Below, one piece after another: positions 1 to 50,735 of a stretch of 64,000 nucleotides of DNA. The stretch covers positions 1-64,000 of the IMG/VR virus record IMGVR_UViG_3300025093_000011, one strand, 5' to 3'. The translations under genes and the position numbers were made by a program. The notes beneath the pieces were generated by a model. It did no database searches. It was given only the letters and a program-made list of their open reading frames with translations, and had not been told where the DNA came from. Origin of the DNA: a virus. Each line of letters opens with the position of its first letter. Position 1 is the first letter of the stretch.

Positions 1-138
1 AAGGATATGGTATAAGTAGTACACTCTTATAAAAACTAACACATACATACAAGTGTTTCCCGTAAAAAATTAAAATAATCAAACATTTAAATACACTTTC
101 TCCTGTAAAAGAGTTTACATTGGTGCTACCGTAGATAA

Positions 139-196
139 TAAGGTATCAATGTAGTAAATGCTAAGGTATCAATGCCCAAGTACTAAGGTGTCAATG
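139..196 (+). repeat. Three direct repeats TAAGGTRTCAATG (iteron-like)
   Basis: Copies at 139-151, 162-174 and 184-196, spaced 23 and 22 bp. Copies 2 and 3 extend with CCCAA. Confidence 0.8.
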
Positions 197-213
197 CCCA
201 AATAAGTATGAGA

Positions 214-252
214 TAAATAAAAGAACCTCTCACATTGCTGTGAAAGGCTCTT
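214..252 (-). terminator. Rho-independent terminator after ORF 266-703
   Basis: Minus strand reads AAGAGCCTTTCACA-GCAA-TGTGAGAGGTTCTTTTT, a hairpin followed by a U tract. Confidence 0.8.
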
Positions 253-732: not shown

Positions 733-756
733 ATTTCATCTATAGCATGTGTTATT
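733..756 (-). promoter_or_regulatory. Putative early phage promoter, copy 1 (AATAACACATGCTATAGATGAAAT)
   Basis: The same 24-mer consensus lies upstream of three consecutive minus-strand genes. Confidence 0.7.
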
Positions 757-850
757 AACAGGCCGTTGTGAGGCACGAACAACCCTTTTCATCAGTCAAC
801 TACTCAGTTATTATTAAAAAGCCGTTTTAACTTGTTAAAACCCTTTTCCA

Positions 851-863
851 TAACTTATTGATT
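851..863 (-). promoter_or_regulatory. IHF-type binding site
   Basis: Minus strand AATCAATAAGTTA matches WATCAANNNNTTR. It is intergenic, and the phage encodes HU/IHF-like proteins. Confidence 0.45.
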
Positions 864-905
864 ATCAAGCACTGAGTCTCATTTCTGTATATATAAGTAA
901 GACAT

Positions 906-933
906 CAAAAAAAAGGGGCTTTTACACCCCCTT
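906..933 (-). terminator. Rho-independent terminator after ORF 938-1186
   Basis: Minus strand reads AAGGGGGTGTAAAAGCCCCTTTTTTTT. Confidence 0.85.
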
Positions 934-937
934 AATA

Positions 938-1186
938 TTAATTTAATTCAGGAAAATCTTCCTTAGTAAGCCACTCTCCATACATGATTTCTGTGATGAG
1001 ACTAACCCTATGTGGATAGGATTTATTTCTATCAAAGTTTTGAATAGGCTCAATGTCCTGTATTCTCTCAAGAACATGTTGCCCTATCTCTAGTTGCTTA
1101 TTACCTGTCTTGTGTAAATCTACATATACAAGTTTACCATTGTTGTGCAAGTCAACATGCTTGCCATAGTTTATTAAATGCTTCAT
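938..1186 (-). CDS. Early hypothetical protein, 82 aa (MKHLINYGKH...)
   Basis: The start was moved to ATG 1186, 15 nt downstream of the CTATAG of promoter copy 2. The longer ORF call 938-1447 would run through a terminator. Confidence 0.7.
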   Translation of the reverse strand: MKHLINYGKHVDLHNNGKLVYVDLHKTGNKQLEIGQHVLERIQDIEPIQNFDRNKSYPHRVSLITEIMYGEWLTKEDFPELN

Positions 1187-1193
1187 AATATAT

Positions 1194-1217
1194 ATTTTAT
1201 CTATAGTGAGTGTTATT
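1194..1217 (-). promoter_or_regulatory. Putative early phage promoter, copy 2 (AATAACACTCACTATAGATAAAAT)
   Basis: Repeated motif sitting between a terminator and an ATG. Confidence 0.7.
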
Positions 1218-1233
1218 CCCTTTTCATTACTTA

Positions 1234-1263
1234 ATAAAAAAAGAACCTCATTTCTGAGGCTCT
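1234..1263 (-). terminator. Rho-independent terminator overlapping the stop of ORF 1248-1424
   Basis: Minus strand reads GAGCCTCA-GAAA-TGAGGTTC-TTTTTTT, with a GNRA loop. Confidence 0.85.
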
Positions 1264-1424
1264 TTCCATAAGCAGATGTTAAAGATGACATACTCACCTG
1301 TGGTGTGCATCTCATATTTACGAAGCACTTTAGTAGTGATCCACTGGTTAATCTTTTGCTGAACCTGTGTGAGAGCTTTCTCATCACTAGCAGGAACAGA
1401 AATAATTTTGACTTTCTTTTCCAT
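1248..1424 (-). CDS. Small early hypothetical protein, 58 aa (not in ORF track)
   Basis: Translates as MEKKVKIISVPASDEKALTQVQQKINQWITTKVLRKYEMHTTGEYVIFNICLWKEPQK. It has a promoter upstream at the same spacing as copy 2 and a terminator at its stop. Confidence 0.7.
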   Translation of the reverse strand: MEKKVKIISVPASDEKALTQVQQKINQWITTKVLRKYEMHTTGEYVIFNICLWKEPQK

Positions 1425-1431
1425 AGCATTA

Positions 1432-1455
1432 ATTTTATATATAGCAAGTGTTATT
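1432..1455 (-). promoter_or_regulatory. Putative early phage promoter, copy 3 (AATAACACTTGCTATATATAAAAT)
   Basis: Repeated motif with the same spacing to the ATG as copy 2. Confidence 0.7.
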
Positions 1456-1509
1456 AATTCCTTTTATATTACATTACATATCTTACTTACTTAACATATA
1501 TATACTAGA

Positions 1510-1783: not shown

Positions 1784-1795
1784 TTTAGTATATTA
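1784..1795 (+). promoter_or_regulatory. Putative late promoter TTTAGTATATTA
   Basis: One of nine copies lying just upstream of late genes. Confidence 0.65.
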
Positions 1796-3468: not shown

Positions 3469-3480
3469 TTTAGTATATTA
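3469..3480 (+). promoter_or_regulatory. Putative late promoter TTTAGTATATTA
   Basis: Repeated motif between a terminator and the structural operon. Confidence 0.7.
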
Positions 3481-7782: not shown

Positions 7783-7794
7783 TTTCGTATATTA
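7783..7794 (+). promoter_or_regulatory. Putative late promoter TTTCGTATATTA (lysis cassette)
   Basis: Repeated motif. The extended GTATATTATAATAAGTAT is identical to the copy at 28787. Confidence 0.7.
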
Positions 7795-9635: not shown

Positions 9636-9697
9636 AGGTTTAAACTATAAACATTTAAACTTTTTTTGTATATTTGCTTAAATCTAAATATACAATT

Positions 9698-14560: not shown

Positions 14561-17305
14561 ATGCAAGTATTTAACGCACTTCAGTTAAAAAATGGAGCTA
14601 AGGTAGAACAGAATAGATTAGGTACAATAACACAACCTTTACAGTTTTTGCCTAAAAAGAAAAAAGATGCTGAATGGGCAGCATGGAATATAGATTGGTT
14701 AGAGTGGAATGGTCTAAAACAACTTCAAAGAACTTCAAGAAAATTATTAAAGAATTACAAGCTTGCAAAGGGTCATATAGATAGAACAGATTATGTTGTA
14801 GAAGAAGATAATGAAAGTAGGGATCTTGTAGAACTTCTTACTCAAGATGAAGATGCTGCATTAGAATTAAAGTTTTATCCAATTATTCCAAATGTTATTA
14901 ATGTTCTAGTAGCTGAATTTGCAAAAAGAACTACTAAACTAACATATAGAGCTGTTGATGAATTTTCATATAATGAAATGCTTGAACAAAAAAGATTAGC
15001 TGTAGAACAAGTTCTTGTTAAACAAGCTAAAACTAAAGTTGAAGCAGCTATGATTGAACAAGGTTTAGATGTAAACTCTGATGAAGCTAGACAACAAACC
15101 AGTACAGAAAATTTAAAAACTTTACCTGAAATAGAAATGTACTTTAAAAAGAGTTACAGATCTATGATAGAAGAATGGGCAACACATCAGCATAAAGTTG
15201 ATGTTGAAAAATTTAGACTTGAAGAACTTGAAGAAAGAGCTTTCCGTGATATGCTTATTACAGACAGAGAGTTTTGGCATATGAAAATGATGGAAGATGA
15301 TTATGAGGTAGAGTTATGGAATCCAGTTCTTACATTTTACCATAAATCTCCTGATGCAAGATATATATCTGATTGTAACTGGGTAGGTAAAACAGATATG
15401 CTTACACCATCTGATGTTATTGATAAGTATGGTTATTTAATGTCAGAAGATCAATTAGAAGCATTAGAAGCTATTTATCCTATAAGAGCAGCAGGATATA
15501 ATATTGGAGGTTATCAAAATGATGGAACTTTTTATGATCCAACTCAAAGTCATGAATGGAATACTCAAATGCCATCATTAGCAATGAGACAATATACTAC
15601 TGCAATGTCAGGAAGTGTATTTGATGGTAATGATGTAGTAAATGAAATTCTTGGACAAGGTGAAGATTTTTCAGATGATGGTCCAGCTTATTTATTAAGA
15701 GTAACAACAACTTATTGGAAATCTCAAAGAAAATTAGGACATCTTACTAAGATATCAGAAACTGGTGAAGTTATAAATGAAATAATTACTGAGCAATATA
15801 AAGTTACTGATAAACCTATTTATGATACTAGACTCTTCAAAAATAAAAATAAAGATAATTTAGTTTTTGGAGAGCATATAGAATGGATATGGATTAATGA
15901 AGTATGGGGTGGTATTAAAATAGGACCAAATATTCCTAGTTACTGGGGTATGAATAATCCTTCTGGTTTATCTCCAATATATATTGGTATAGATAGAAAA
16001 ACTCCAGGACCTCTTAAGTTTCAATTTAAAGGTGATAATAATCTTTATGGTTGTAAACTTCCTGTAGAGGGTGCTGTATTCTCAGATAGAAATACTAAGT
16101 CTACTGCTTTAGTTGATTTAATGAAACCATTTCAAATTGGTTATAACATTGTTAATAATCAAATGGCTGATATATTAGTTGATGAACTTGGTACTGTAAT
16201 AATGTTAGATCAAAATACTCTTCCTAAACATTCATTAGGAGAAGATTGGGGTAAAGGTAATTTAGCTAAAGCTTATGTAGCTATGAAAGATTTCCAGATG
16301 CTTCCTCTTGATACATCTATTACAAATACAGAGAATGCATTAAACTTCCAACATTTCCAAAAACTTGATTTAGATCAGACTAATAGACTTATGTCTAGAA
16401 TCCAGTTATCTAATTATTTTAAACAACAAGCATATGAAGTGATAGGTGTTAATCCACAAAGAATGGGTCAGCAGATATCTCAACAAACTGCTACAGGTGT
16501 AGAGCAAGCTGTTAATGCATCATATGCTCAAACAGAAACTTACTTTATACAACACTGTGATTACTTGATGCCAAGAGTTCATCAGATGAGAACAGACTTA
16601 GCTCAATTCTATAATTCAACTAAACCATCTGCTAGACTAACATATATTACATCTGCAGATGAAAAAGTTAATTTTGAAATAAATGGTACAGACCTTTTAA
16701 TGAGAGATCTTAACATCTTTACATCAACTACTGCAAATCATAGAGCTATTCTTGAACAATTAAAACAAATGGCAATGACTAATAATACTACAGGAGCTAG
16801 TATATATGATCTTGGTAAAATTGTTCAATCAGATTCTATTGCTGAACTAAATGCTGCAATGAAAGATTCTGAACAAAAACAACAACAGCAGAAACAACAA
16901 GAGATGCAGCAACAGCAGCAAATGCAAGAACAGCAAATTCAAGCTCAACAACAACAAGAGCAAATGAGAATGACTGCAGAAGCTGCAGAAAAAGAAAAAG
17001 ACAGACAAAAAGATATTCTTATTGCTGAAATTAAATCTGCTGGTTATGGATCAATGGTAGATATTAATAAGAATGAGCAAAGTGATTATAAAGATGCTAT
17101 GGATGACATTAGAAAGACTCAGCAGTATCAAGCACAAACTTCAATGCAAAGAGAAAAGCAAGCTAATGATATGACTAAGCATAATCAAAAAATGTCTATT
17201 GAAGAGCAGAAGATTCAAGCTCAAATGGCAATTGCTGATAAACAACTTCAAATTGCTAGAGAGAATAAGAATAAATATGATGTTAAAAAACCTAAGAAGA
17301 GTTAA
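14561..17305 (+). CDS. Portal protein (crAss-like)
   Basis: 914 aa, directly after TerL. Contains FYPIIPNVINVL, G..PQR.G....QTATGVEQAV and a Gln-rich C-terminal coiled barrel. Confidence 0.9.
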   Translation: MQVFNALQLKNGAKVEQNRLGTITQPLQFLPKKKKDAEWAAWNIDWLEWNGLKQLQRTSRKLLKNYKLAKGHIDRTDYVVEEDNESRDLVELLTQDEDAALELKFYPIIPNVINVLVAEFAKRTTKLTYRAVDEFSYNEMLEQKRLAVEQVLVKQAKTKVEAAMIEQGLDVNSDEARQQTSTENLKTLPEIEMYFKKSYRSMIEEWATHQHKVDVEKFRLEELEERAFRDMLITDREFWHMKMMEDDYEVELWNPVLTFYHKSPDARYISDCNWVGKTDMLTPSDVIDKYGYLMSEDQLEALEAIYPIRAAGYNIGGYQNDGTFYDPTQSHEWNTQMPSLAMRQYTTAMSGSVFDGNDVVNEILGQGEDFSDDGPAYLLRVTTTYWKSQRKLGHLTKISETGEVINEIITEQYKVTDKPIYDTRLFKNKNKDNLVFGEHIEWIWINEVWGGIKIGPNIPSYWGMNNPSGLSPIYIGIDRKTPGPLKFQFKGDNNLYGCKLPVEGAVFSDRNTKSTALVDLMKPFQIGYNIVNNQMADILVDELGTVIMLDQNTLPKHSLGEDWGKGNLAKAYVAMKDFQMLPLDTSITNTENALNFQHFQKLDLDQTNRLMSRIQLSNYFKQQAYEVIGVNPQRMGQQISQQTATGVEQAVNASYAQTETYFIQHCDYLMPRVHQMRTDLAQFYNSTKPSARLTYITSADEKVNFEINGTDLLMRDLNIFTSTTANHRAILEQLKQMAMTNNTTGASIYDLGKIVQSDSIAELNAAMKDSEQKQQQQKQQEMQQQQQMQEQQIQAQQQQEQMRMTAEAAEKEKDRQKDILIAEIKSAGYGSMVDINKNEQSDYKDAMDDIRKTQQYQAQTSMQREKQANDMTKHNQKMSIEEQKIQAQMAIADKQLQIARENKNKYDVKKPKKS

Positions 17306-17637: not shown

Positions 17638-17649
17638 TTTAGTATATTA
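17638..17649 (+). promoter_or_regulatory. Putative late promoter TTTAGTATATTA (scaffold-MCP operon)
   Basis: Repeated motif. Confidence 0.7.
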
Positions 17650-23324: not shown

Positions 23325-23336
23325 TTTTGTATATTA
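23325..23336 (+). promoter_or_regulatory. Putative late promoter TTTTGTATATTA
   Basis: Repeated motif. Confidence 0.65.
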
Positions 23337-24341: not shown

Positions 24342-24353
24342 TTTTGTATATTA
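24342..24353 (+). promoter_or_regulatory. Putative late promoter TTTTGTATATTA
   Basis: Repeated motif. Confidence 0.7.
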
Positions 24354-31847: not shown

Positions 31848-31859
31848 TTTAGTATATTA
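31848..31859 (+). promoter_or_regulatory. Putative late promoter TTTAGTATATTA
   Basis: Repeated motif. A host-type TATATTTG lies just upstream at 31816. Confidence 0.7.
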
Positions 31860-45600: not shown

Positions 45601-47450
45601 ATCAAGTTGCAAAGAATCCTAATTATCTTAAAAGAAACCTTGGAAAACCAGGTCCTTCAATTCATATACCTTATGAAGCTATGAAAAGATTGGAAGAGAA
45701 AAAGAAAAAAGAATTAGAAGGCTATGAAGTAACAGATGCATCACCCGGACCATTTGATGACCATATAGAATTTGCTAAAGAACTAACTATAAATCCTGCA
45801 ATAAGAACATATAATAAACTAACCACTGATCCTATAGGTTTTGGAAAAGATATTGGTACTACATACTCAGATCTTGTAACATCTCCAATTACTGCAGGTA
45901 AAGAGCTTTATGATTACACTCTTGGTGATGGCAACTTTGAGTTTGATAAGATTATTGACATGAATGCATTAGGTACAACTCTTGATCTAGTTGGGTCAGT
46001 ACCTATAAGTTCTGTTTTTACAAAGGTTCTTAAACCTGTAACTAAGTTTACTAAACCTGCTATAACTAAAGGGTTCTCTAAAGCACGTAAAGCTTTTAAG
46101 AGAAAACCAAATTACTATGAAAAGGTTGCAAATAGTGAGGGTATGGTCGATTTAAACCGTAAATTATATATAACAGATGAAAGCTATAACGCATGGTTAA
46201 AAAAATTTCCAGATTATGCAAATGATGAAACTCAAGTAAGTAAAATGTTACAAAAAGTTGACTCTGGAGAAATAGGAGTGTTGCAAAAAAAGCCATCTAA
46301 ATATTCTGTTAGAGAGGATGAGTTAATATTACCTCCAGAGAAGTTTAAAATTGTAGATGAGCAAGTAAAAATTAAGTTGGATAGAATGAAAAGTGAGAAA
46401 GGTTTTAAGCTTTTAAAAGAGCAAGAAAAAGCCTATCTAAATAAAACCCTTAATAAAGATGGTAAGCTAACTGCAAAAGAACTAGATGAAATGGCTGAGA
46501 CTGCTGCTAATGCTAGAATTGATGAAGTTGAAAATCTTTATAATACTAAAAACTATTCAGCAGACATCGAAATGTCAGCTTGGCATAGAAGAAGTCCTGA
46601 ATTAGGAAATTTATATGATAAGAGTGGACAATATGTAGCCAACATAAATAAAACATTTAGTCCTACTAATAAAGAGGTAGTTTTAGGCTTTAACCCTAAT
46701 TATGTAACAAGGAAAAATCCTGCTGTAATACAGCATGAATTAGGGCATATGGCTAGTGCAGGTAGAGACATACCTATAGAAAAAGAATTAATAGAAGCTG
46801 TTGGAAAACCTAATGTTTATAAAAATATTCCAAAAGGACAAAAGTATAATGATGGAGCATGGAGAGCTCATAATTATTTTATAAAAAAAGATGAAATGGG
46901 TGAAAAACTAGTAGAAACACTTCGCAAACTAGATCCTGTAGAAAATCAAAGTCTTACAAAGAGTCAGCTTTTTGATAAATATAAACATTATAAGGATGCA
47001 AACTTTCCTTATATGGCAAGTGATATTAGAATAAATACTTTAAAAGGTGGGGAACCTATACCATTTGCTCATGAGCTTAAGGAAACTTTAATGCAACAAG
47101 GTTTACTAAAAGATTGGTTTGATCCAGTTACTAAAGATATGTTAATACAATCTCAAAAATTAAGTAAACAAACACCACGAGGTTATTTTCAAAAATCTTC
47201 TTGGCACGATGGTAAATTAGATAAGCATGGACATGTTCAATCAACAACTAGAATTTTAGATTTTACAGATCCTTCAAGATATGAACAATTAGCTAAAGTG
47301 TTAAATAAACTTGCACCTGTTGTAGCAAGTCCTGTTGTAGCAACTAGCATGCTTGATAATAAAAGAGATGGAGGTTTTATAGATACTGAACTTACAGAAG
47401 ATGAAGTATTGGATTTATTACAAAAAGGTTATAACTTAGAAGAATTATGA
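39678..47450 (+). CDS. Giant modular virion cargo protein with two zincin (HExxH) domains
   Basis: N-terminal ITM.GV..PVLGID..G....M.PG.DY.FPG domain, HELSH and HELGH, and repeated GGYILEEL linkers. Confidence 0.7.
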   Translation: MKFKQSKYGQWAYPGENTLIPNVDGKITMQGVGGPVLGIDDEGNSMMMMPGHDYQFPGNSVYEIPMYGNGGPKVKQRRGVRKNYDNKTWTPSGLQFPTSVSSHLMRAEYIPERGWVAFPSLFQDSKPYADDQQNWIDMSEEEDLMKVYEEAERRGEVYDFGEDKEAALAFGEGSWKDQLPDEVIEVELTDKEADKYRAGGYILEEIDEGGEPGPGGPIYVKDKNDPRYQEYLKRKELYEKSKEAFYRDQKDYEKKWATEHPTTGKISKVYFSTNPKNVKDDWSKPTRTKYDEAIKNRYFLAYGDSPSNNPGNLNKWDISKNTLNSDASILDSSDTKVELDGRMKNIYKLAKNYGIKPDFHQTENVGSINVTSNVFFKKPEFEVIVDPSKVPAEEELTFEDMTIPQMETLDPQVIPTNLQNFVYGPIDDNWPEEEGYTRRELRQQEREGKQDDIQQNIKTNRVYNLFGKKKKNRDRKSYRRKWFEEGGYILEELHEGGVPHQHPHSTDPTPSRTPRVYTYKDHKDIIDSTANWETRSDVPISSDYNAQIQDRLYSGNYGFDSKTGQLIKLDKRGRTKVKDPYVKEVKKDLKVMQDMTQDEKLNYQQGKRDDKDWELHKKYIEGKVPHTISTVDAWRPHFQLTDKYGNTFDAYDRPGQEVFMTPAQKDAYIKASVAHNAPIWKEQANNVFGAATAFTPWGAGVWGMYGLANLGLKSAPELVSDPGSLENWKNVGLDLVTASPFVPGSVRAIKRSAPAIKSNTRKLVTAIDDAIPTPAPGSQTFASGIIPDVKRNLKVLKSKLKSKPKSSKPDVKEKLKKGTTQEEFDAFEKSLKPGEYLDEYRVKFDNPAESPIGWSPGMVPGATTPRKLLREVRNFSMGNFPLVNRLPIVRRMSGSPSVVHPDVLKYTPYKSMYNAPIPVGPQGFDTFNRFKDLSSKLKYPVGPITQKEVIALNTKLDDIMGSQTISSRGVKPNKKGFQKAAKQYNRIFGNTKFDVKPGSTNFSRHELNKFLYKGDNKIGDVMPTTERVFMNLAMPTVTGLSGYLAYDSDTGRDIRDWLQNNWQAYGNKLNRVTGLNIVPTDITKAGNIVRNPSSGDTGPTPYDTLIRLDDNVLGYGNIDSAPSKYTTILGGDFVNKSDQNRYTKDNTVRMAQDWTDAIENDPRQQVGDRRSGERPLRVKDIKSYYGVENGKLKLGMPEDFEPGTTIIPNRYDKGQTVAKALNVKDEGVFRIVDSKGKPIYQNSSNFGKIIFTSDEGDPIFVSFDSNPRSRQTAVDQVNQYIETHKNVKPIVLDTGRFAHWMHNPKGLETMQGDTESTGNELYWSTGSMGGSDRGYNIFIEKPRPVRRPRGGGGSWKEGGQLPKAQMGAISTINPYWAIRGHNNVIKAGEALGLLGKDRNRVGSCPKGKIYDHEDDECISYEVYFKKYPRGEKINKAIVEANESYPKDVQWFKDYMNSPRYKQMLKESIEADYPSPAWNPNATHPWANRAFKTMYNERNFNLASTPPPIYFHKENGNSNSPHPDGDYLALSSGVDGRVTHDPKYLSLQTPTFKGEDKHAFIHELSHATDRAPGYRYPQNWNKKLNRLIPVSDVKYMNKNATTEFDKSRVWNNLKATYEVDGLFPSHVKTPTQKLEWYAKTYPDAIELQTKTSKYIANPTETRARLMEIRRAGQKAGIYDPFTEKVDKKIFNKLKRRRSHTDRGLVPLDDLQQVYDDDEILWMLNNISKNEAPQVEGDDMQMAKKGGSVDIELTEKEVAEYLKGGYILEELQDGGYPGGIDRELYQYEEGRKTLDQLSPKAKKIAIANNKKNYKNNPNPFAFTKMQFEFDKKQSDKKLKKIKEQSKNLLNTSSSGNKFDLNDKFKFKGFDTRSEEQKRIDEENFQKSVQDSSASTQDGYGLPISLIDGSKEDLANFMYDTPRELTADEKSKALSWISGQPQNKELSNDDIYQLMEGQVKYLNIPKKSDEQIVQEYYNQVAKNPNYLKRNLGKPGPSIHIPYEAMKRLEEKKKKELEGYEVTDASPGPFDDHIEFAKELTINPAIRTYNKLTTDPIGFGKDIGTTYSDLVTSPITAGKELYDYTLGDGNFEFDKIIDMNALGTTLDLVGSVPISSVFTKVLKPVTKFTKPAITKGFSKARKAFKRKPNYYEKVANSEGMVDLNRKLYITDESYNAWLKKFPDYANDETQVSKMLQKVDSGEIGVLQKKPSKYSVREDELILPPEKFKIVDEQVKIKLDRMKSEKGFKLLKEQEKAYLNKTLNKDGKLTAKELDEMAETAANARIDEVENLYNTKNYSADIEMSAWHRRSPELGNLYDKSGQYVANINKTFSPTNKEVVLGFNPNYVTRKNPAVIQHELGHMASAGRDIPIEKELIEAVGKPNVYKNIPKGQKYNDGAWRAHNYFIKKDEMGEKLVETLRKLDPVENQSLTKSQLFDKYKHYKDANFPYMASDIRINTLKGGEPIPFAHELKETLMQQGLLKDWFDPVTKDMLIQSQKLSKQTPRGYFQKSSWHDGKLDKHGHVQSTTRILDFTDPSRYEQLAKVLNKLAPVVASPVVATSMLDNKRDGGFIDTELTEDEVLDLLQKGYNLEEL

Positions 47451-50723: not shown

Positions 50724-50735
50724 TTTAGTATATTA
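50724..50735 (+). promoter_or_regulatory. Putative late promoter TTTAGTATATTA
   Basis: Repeated motif. Confidence 0.7.

Follow-up and report, generated by a model that had tools for sequence, protein, structure and literature searches.

A three-copy motif at the start of the early strand of a distantly crAss-like phage: candidate immediate-early promoters

The first 64,000 nucleotides (nt) of IMG/VR virus record IMGVR_UViG_3300025093_000011, a 113,198-bp record from an uncultured marine phage rated 98% complete, carry three small minus-strand genes near their left end (here genes A, B, and C), each preceded by a copy of the same 24-base motif. We refer to this 64,000-nt stretch as the window. 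Our reading of the motif, to which we give a probability of roughly one-half, is that the three copies are bipartite immediate-early promoters read by a polymerase that accompanies the phage DNA, for which a giant protein with a DFDxD site is the candidate. That the motif has promoter function of some kind appears likely whichever polymerase reads it.

Under this proposal, each copy would drive one short, terminator-bounded unit at the outset of the early strand, which carries the replication module. The upstream box of the motif (AATAACAC, reaching into the next CT) would set lineage specificity, and the downstream TnAAAT box, which in most cassettes precedes the start codon by about 7 nt, would be the clade-wide part. 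The reader would be a polymerase activity entering with the DNA, namely the giant protein with its crAss-type DFDxD site, and transcription would start about 8 nt past TnAAAT, so that the mRNAs of genes A and B would have little or no leader.

Motif copies, cassettes, and genome setting

The first-pass annotation of this DNA had placed the motif at three minus-strand sites between positions 733 and 1455, and all three sequences are found there (Table 1). When up to three mismatches are allowed, its consensus, AATAACACwyrCTATAkATrAAAT, matches exactly three window sites; the chance expectation from shuffled sequences is 0.02, and none of 100 shuffles reaches three sites. The annotation had also predicted that hits across the rest of the genome would be confined to the early strand. 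All three copies are on that (minus) strand, and no copy occurs elsewhere in the whole record, whether searched with a looser pattern or with a position weight matrix (PWM) at 60% of the training score. Each copy lies upstream of a minus-strand gene, two of them at equal spacing as originally described, with 7, 7, and 29 nt between the motif end and the ATG. When the three copies are compared with one from a strain-level relative, the invariant columns are AATAACAC, CTATA, T, and AAAT, and the flanks are unconserved. An exact search of IMG/VR with the motif in its own form returned four single matches in coding-like contexts, which we take to be chance.

A simple map of open reading frames (ORFs) divides the genome into a short minus-strand block (266-1429), a plus-strand block (2008-84401), and a long minus-strand block (84512-113081). 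Structural genes lie in the plus block, including those for the capsid protein (PHROG major head protein) and a homologue of the crassvirus muzzle protein (Pfam PF25731). The long minus block is the replication module, encoding DnaB, Toprim, a PD-(D/E)XK nuclease, a helicase, and others, together with a DNA polymerase B match that is weak and under the Pfam cutoff. Because a hydrophobic ORF of 50 amino acids (aa) at window positions 1-48 (minus strand) continues in frame over the record end into genome position 113198, and because the relative G002 is collinear over the same point, the record is probably a genome that is closed or circularly permuted and was opened at an arbitrary position. 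The minus-strand genes at 1424-266 would therefore be the first of the early strand, and these three small genes adjoin a divergent junction at 1456-1800.

Each of the three genes is closed by a hairpin plus T-run. A terminator-like hairpin precedes copies 2 and 3, so that the units downstream of them need a new transcription start, and a gene follows all three copies. In this respect the motif behaves like the promoter it had been proposed to be: it sits between a terminator and the next gene, on one strand, in an arrangement kept in many relatives. The wider claim that it is the early promoter of this phage does not stand as worded. The motif heads only 3 of approximately 50 minus-strand genes, and the annotation had itself named absence before other early genes as grounds for rejection; the claim survives if narrowed, with the motif marking an immediate-early subset rather than the early class defined in phage phi14:2.

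The AAAAGG sequence reported upstream of each copy is indeed present (four minus-strand sites in 1-1900), but its spacing is not fixed, at 4, 1, and 27 nt. A decayed motif copy upstream of copy 3 has an AAAAGG-plus-hairpin element on either side (GGGTTTTAACAAGTTAAAACGGC and GGGTTGTTCGTGCCTCACAACGGCC; minus strand, 761-847), and a related element is found in the relative L008; this region may be a regulatory site for gene C. Just past the gene C terminator are three direct repeats of CATTGAYACCTTA (139-196, minus strand), two of them extended to TTGGGCATTGAYACCTTAG.

No family was assigned to any of the three gene products. Searches of the ESM Atlas with gene A returned hypothetical proteins only, searches of a phage collection with region 1-2000 and with gene A gave no match, and a pattern search found no IMG/VR relative of gene C.

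Table 1. Positions of the motif copies, genes, terminators, and accompanying elements (window coordinates unless marked as genome coordinates)
Feature	Position	Strand	Remarks
Motif copy 1, AATAACACTTGCTATATATAAAAT	1432-1455	-	7 nt before gene A ATG
Motif copy 2, AATAACACTCACTATAGATAAAAT	1194-1217	-	7 nt before gene B ATG; most T7-like copy (17/23)
Motif copy 3, AATAACACATGCTATAGATGAAAT	733-756	-	29 nt before gene C ATG
Gene A, 58 aa	1248-1424	-	first early-strand gene; no Pfam/PHROG family; homologues in 36 IMG/VR loci
Gene B, 82 aa	938-1186	-	no family; homologues in two relatives, 62-72% identity
Gene C, 145 aa	266-703	-	no family; tblastx homologue in relative G001, 56% over 155 aa
Terminator-like hairpin CCTCAGAAATGAGG + T-run	1236-1259	-	gene A end; read from the sequence, not listed by the consensus scan
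Intrinsic terminator	907-933	-	after gene B; consensus scan
Intrinsic terminator, 14-pair stem	213-252	-	after gene C; consensus scan
AAAAGG	1460-1465	-	4 nt upstream of copy 1
AAAAGG	1219-1224	-	1 nt upstream of copy 2
AAAAGG	784-789	-	27 nt upstream of copy 3
AAAAGG	842-847	-	upstream of decayed motif copy
Two AAAAGG-plus-hairpin elements (821-847, 761-789) flanking a decayed motif copy (791-815)	761-847	-	upstream of copy 3
First late-strand motif, TTTAGTATATTA	1784-1795	+	5 nt before ATG at 1801; divergent partner of the early cluster
TTTwGTATATTA copies	1784-1795, 3469-3480, 7783-7794, 9664-9675, 17638-17649, 23325-23336, 24342-24353, 31848-31859, 50724-50735	+	
TTTwGTATATTA copy inside replication block	genome 105642-105653	-	

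Conservation and variation in related phages

A search with gene B identified two IMG/VR contigs in which a related motif precedes each of the homologues of genes A, B, and C (AAGAACTCTTACTATA..TnAAAT in one contig and AACAACTCTTACTAT...TnAAAT in the other). Some motif copies in these contigs are not followed within 60 nt by an ORF of 30 aa or more. A profile of gene A reached further, to 36 IMG/VR loci, and in nearly every lineage a T(T/n)AAA(T/C) box stands 7-10 nt before the gene A ATG, preceded by a lineage-variable box. Using each locus's own 28-mer upstream of gene A as a probe, we found the same upstream box two to nine times per lineage in most lineages tested, on the gene strand and before neighbouring small genes; one locus yielded its own seed alone. 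Across 17 representative loci there are 67 same-strand box copies and 3 on the opposite strand, all 3 from one low-complexity seed. Of the 59 copies that have an ORF, 39 match the spacing between box and ATG seen at gene A to within 1 nt; the other 8 copies have none.

Whole-genome PWM scans located 3 copies within 0.7 kb of 113 kb in the phage studied here, 7 within 1.8 kb of 109 kb in the complete relative G004, and 4 within 1 kb of 109 kb in G005, on one strand in each genome and with no copies in shuffled sequences. Small groups of sites where the early strand begins thus characterize the clade.

A single version of the upstream box is found throughout each genome, and the version changes from phage to phage, being AATAACAC in the phage studied here, AAGAACTC in G001, and AACAACTC in G002. 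The differences range from two positions among these three phages to no relation at all in further lineages. Closer comparisons are provided by marine metagenome contigs, which hold strain-level relatives at 92-97% identity (CEUT01142654.1, CERU01103970.1, and Ga0115011_10423623). In one of these relatives, L098, genes B and C are separated by two additional cassettes. One of the two (909-932) is headed by AATAACACTTACTATAACTTAAAT, and its leader matches that of a G002 cassette headed by ACAACTCTTACTATAACTTAAAT; the same cassette thus bears the resident box type in each phage. The other has no full motif. Alignment of L098 490-1218 (contig CEUT01142654.1, a marine strain 93-97% identical) with window positions 847-1083 also places a difference in the C terminus of gene B. 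Given this altered C terminus and the two extra cassettes, immediate-early cassettes turn over like morons, with the promoter type kept.

Candidate readers of the motif

A reader that comes from the phage rather than from the host best accounts for an upstream box that is constant in any one genome and differs between lineages, and we hold it at about even odds that a phage-supplied polymerase reads the motif. The candidate is a giant ORF of 3862 aa at genome positions 68478-80066, beyond the window, which bears the sequence DFDVD. In a weak tblastn alignment (22% identity over 545 aa), this DFDVD aligns with GSDFDID in a 4947-aa giant protein of Besingivirus cr118_1, a classified crassvirus. 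Homologues of the giant protein are encoded in three complete relatives, G003-G005, at 27-31% identity; GSDFDxD is kept in G003 and G004 and was not found in G005 by an exact-motif scan. Gene A is 44-67% identical in the same relatives, so the polymerase candidate would be the faster-evolving partner, like the boxes. In these relatives with the candidate polymerase gene, too, a conserved motif lies directly upstream of the first genes, as expected of promoters of two-barrel RNA polymerases (RNAPs). The first-pass annotation had assigned the motif to a phage RNAP; box variation and the giant DFDxD gene fit this view, and the polymerase assignment itself is one that we infer. Separately, residues 3444-3607, in the C-terminal part of the giant ORF, match a 2OG-Fe(II) oxygenase weakly (E = 1.3e-4), under the Pfam cutoff. 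A phage-encoded sigma factor was also considered as the reader and was rejected when searches for a sigma-70 domain detected none in the genome.

A second motif, on the late strand, provides a contrast. TTTwGTATATTA occurs in 9 forward copies, compared with 1 control match, in late-strand intergenic positions 5-35 nt before start codons, and is often followed by TAGTAT. This late-strand motif (TTTNGTATATTW) recurs in G003 and G004, where one strand predominates, and less strongly in G005 and G006, although the early boxes of these phages are different. It is probably a middle or late promoter of extended -10-like type read by the host polymerase. Its presence in phages with different early boxes fits a conserved (host) reader late and a phage-specific reader early.

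The same comparisons bear on where transcription would start. The initial prediction, a +1 at or near the base after CTATA, now looks doubtful: this base is G, G, and T in the three copies and is unconserved in relatives, and CTATA itself falls in a spacer whose TATA positions vary in G002 (ACTGCAGT, ACTATGGG, and ACTATCAG). The elements conserved across the clade are the TnAAAT box and its distance to the ATG, 7 nt in genes A and B. In long-leader or ORF-less cassettes of the phage's own subclade, an A stands at the eighth position after the box (TATTATTA, TATTTAAA, ATATAAAA, and ATTTATTA), which in DNA this AT rich is a weak hint to the start site. A predicted structure (z = -2.7) in one non-coding unit of the relatives has a closing stem that begins 8 nt past the box and ends at a T-run. 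We suggest that transcription of genes A and B probably starts at an A about 8 nt past TnAAAT, either at the ATG itself or immediately before it.

Of the alternatives, the one that survives best is that the host RNAP reads these early promoters, through a non-canonical or alternative sigma factor or with TnAAAT as a -10-like element and a leaderless start. We regard this as unlikely, though it is the most serious rival. TnAAAT ends about 7 nt before the ATG, which is where the -10 of a leaderless mRNA would lie; two of the phage's own copies read TAAAAT, a 5/6 match to TATAAT; and at some genes the late-type motif is similarly arranged (TATATT, 5-8 nt, ATG). Clustered strong host promoters serve the first genes of many phages, such as A1-A3 of T7. 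However, position 2 of the box varies among A, G, T, and C, whereas the late-type motif keeps TA...T in 9 of 9 sites, and the invariant AATAACAC falls in what would be the spacer, which sigma-70 does not contact. Boxes also diverge strongly between phages that have a common late-strand motif (G003 and G004).

Standard host promoters were likewise tried and rejected. A sigma-70 consensus scan of 1-2100 gave 10 sites, the level seen in shuffles (9.2), and the conserved block would sit in the sigma-70 spacer, with a variable second position in TnAAAT. The sigma-A promoter of Bacteroidota was rejected in that no TAnnTTTG occurs on the minus strand of 1-1800, in agreement with the earlier observation that the copies do not match this host type. 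That observation presupposed a Bacteroidota host, which we could not support: the window holds 73 TAnnTTTG sites where 92 are expected and thus shows no enrichment, and among cultured phages the nearest by capsid protein is Leptolyngbya phage Lbo-JY46, at 29% identity. Weaker capsid matches are to Cellulophaga phages phi17:2 and phi4:1 and to crAssE-Sib.

It is less probable still that the upstream box is an operator for a phage regulator, acting in shut-off or activation and overlapping a minimal TnAAAT promoter. A co-evolving repressor-operator pair would also produce uniformity within genomes and divergence between them, and gene A, the conserved first gene of the cluster, has no known function. 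The box nevertheless lacks dyad symmetry, genes A-C have no match to a helix-turn-helix or ribbon-helix-helix family, and a regulator made after infection cannot account for the first round of transcription. An operator of this kind is compatible with recognition by an entering polymerase and does not exclude it.

We think it very improbable that the motif acts at the RNA level, as a processing site or as a translation-initiation enhancer held at a fixed distance from the start codon within a longer early transcript. The 7-nt distance to the ATG does resemble that of a ribosome-binding element; against this, copies 2 and 3 lie directly behind a terminator-like hairpin, the spacing to the ATG rises to 29 nt at copy 3, no ORF of 30 aa or more is found in the 60 nt after 8 copies in relatives, and the motif has no anti-Shine-Dalgarno complementarity.

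A genuine T7-type promoter for a single-subunit RNAP is largely refuted, and the likeness that the first-pass annotation had pointed out is coincidental, as that annotation had allowed. Copy 2 does contain ACTCACTATAG, as in the T7 record, and matches the T7 consensus at 17 of 23 positions, but this is barely over the genome background (16/23 at four unrelated places), and the other copies reach 15 and 14. There is no conserved TATA or initiating G, the TATA positions varying in G002 as described above. No match to PF00940, the family of T7-like single-subunit RNAPs, was found in the genome, in a search for which control genomes could not give a signal and which took only some of the giant virion proteins domain by domain; T7 RNAP gave no significant tblastn match (best E = 9.8); and of the ten largest ORFs on the early strand none is an RNAP, each having replication or repair domains or no Pfam family.

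An N4-type hairpin promoter was rejected as well: DNA folds of either strand at the three copies range from 0 to -2.8 kcal/mol, no better than shuffles. The small cluster at the start of the early region that such promoters form is seen here, with 3 copies within 0.7 kb, and in complete relatives, with 4-7 copies within 1-1.8 kb.

Several points weigh against promoters read by the entering giant protein. The motif is missing from the other approximately 48 early-strand genes. The giant ORF has no RNAP match by PDB sequence search, Pfam, or PHROGs, and its assignment is circumstantial, depending on a single weak tblastn alignment (22%) at the DFDxD site together with crAss-type synteny. The phage is, to judge from its muzzle Pfam match and 29% capsid identity, only distantly crAss-like. 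Uniformity of the box within a genome could come from recent duplication or gene conversion. Promoter activity, polymerase, and start site are all inferred from DNA rather than from transcripts. Finally, in phi14:2, the only crAss-like phage studied, no common motif is detectable upstream of the early transcripts made by the virion RNAP gp66, the whole replication module is early and rifampicin resistant, and gp66 in vitro transcribes only single-stranded or denatured DNA (10.1101/2020.03.07.982082).

Non-coding stretches and comparison with known systems

Two non-coding stretches are 97% identical between G001 and G002 (L009 4643-4802 and 3436-3536; L008 4649-4857 and 4308-4421), where the proteins beside them are approximately 62-72% identical. 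Each is headed by a motif copy in G002. The longer has a closing stem and T-run (z = -2.7), and the shorter folds no better than shuffles (z = -0.8). Both stretches are candidate immediate-early small RNAs, reminiscent of the non-coding transcripts that are abundant early in phi14:2. A further non-coding gap of 384 nt lies on the early strand beyond the window (genome 112162-112545, minus strand; L023 12163-12546). This gap contains GC-rich patches (GGGCCCCC and GGAGGGGGACCC), ends in a hairpin plus T-run, and is a candidate structured RNA; it is preceded not by the phage's own type of motif but by AAACTTTTAAG, which resembles the shared box of some relatives. Rfam searches of the window start, two relatives, and the genome end gave nothing significant.

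The divergent intergenic region (1503-1751) contains a GC-rich island (GGGGGTACACACCAAGGGTGGGTGGCAGGGGGG, plus strand) and a CA-rich tract, both conserved in G001 (by tblastx; visible in L008 3480-3700). An origin, a packaging site, and a non-coding RNA are all candidates for this element. In Lbo-JY46 (L119), described as a cyanophage, the intergenic regions 15975-16078, 46388-46466, and 47088-47185 carry boxes (TATCTTTG or TAACTTTG) that by inspection agree with the TAnnTTTG consensus of Bacteroidota.

Parallels in organization are found with phi14:2, in which the early (replication) and late strands likewise diverge, a giant protein has a DFDxD site, and non-coding stretches lie close to where the early strand begins. 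Middle promoters of phi14:2 are sigma-70-like (10.1101/2020.03.07.982082). In contrast to phi14:2, a clear motif is present here and is limited to the first three genes. When the first 9 kb of phi14:2 were searched for repeats, no motif family of this kind emerged, and the early-region starts of phi14:2 and Lbo-JY46 show no clear equivalent.

For the motif itself there is a parallel in Thermus phage P23-45, whose two-barrel virion RNAP has been assigned a strongly conserved AT-rich motif at pre-early genes near the left genome end (PMC10770324). As in the promoters of P23-45 gp96, the motif described here stands before what would be the first-expressed small genes near one genome end, and the P23-45 motif is also found in relatives that carry the virion RNAP; gp96, which is fused to the tail tape, belongs to the same two-barrel single-chain class as crAss-like gp66 (PMC10770324). 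The two systems differ in that P23-45 starts were mapped by ONT-cappable-seq with ChIP-seq support, whereas those proposed here are predicted from sequence; in number, with at least 14 sites against 3; in sequence, which is unrelated; and in the special conserved terminator motif of P23-45, where the cassettes here end in ordinary hairpin-plus-T terminators (PMC10770324).

Coliphage N4 provides another precedent in P1-P3, three phage-specific promoters at the start of the early region from which an injected polymerase makes the first class of small-gene transcripts (PMC4496689). Unlike the motif here, which forms no hairpin, N4 promoters are DNA hairpins with a 5-7-bp stem and a 3-nt loop, and the N4 polymerase is a T7-like single-subunit domain rather than a candidate of two-barrel DFDxD type (PMC4496689). 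The class II and III promoters of the T7 group (TAATACGACTCACTATAGGGAGA) share with copy 2 a contiguous look-alike of about 23 bp (17/23), and the small box differences between related phages recall the specificity positions of T7, T3, and SP6. In contrast to that group, no T7-like RNAP gene was found here, and the TATA part is unconserved in relatives.

We found no defined promoter of a crAss-like virion RNAP in the literature searched, where recognition by these polymerases is still undefined. We tentatively propose, while thinking it somewhat less probable than the basic reading above, that the motif and its counterparts in at least 10 related marine lineages would be the first defined promoters of crAss-type two-barrel virion RNAPs. 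They would be bipartite, with a fast-evolving specificity box that co-evolves with the 27-31% identical polymerases and a shared TnAAAT box that sets a start about 8 nt downstream, and would give rise to leaderless immediate-early mRNAs and small non-coding RNAs. If the host polymerase reads these sites, they would instead be an ordinary early promoter cluster. The clade supplies short, naturally varied candidate templates, with two to nine matched sites per phage and box variants between relatives, which opens the question of recognition to in vitro tests with a recombinant polymerase module. The arrangement would also distinguish, within the replication strand, a small immediate-early class that consists of tiny genes and, in relatives, of non-coding units as well.

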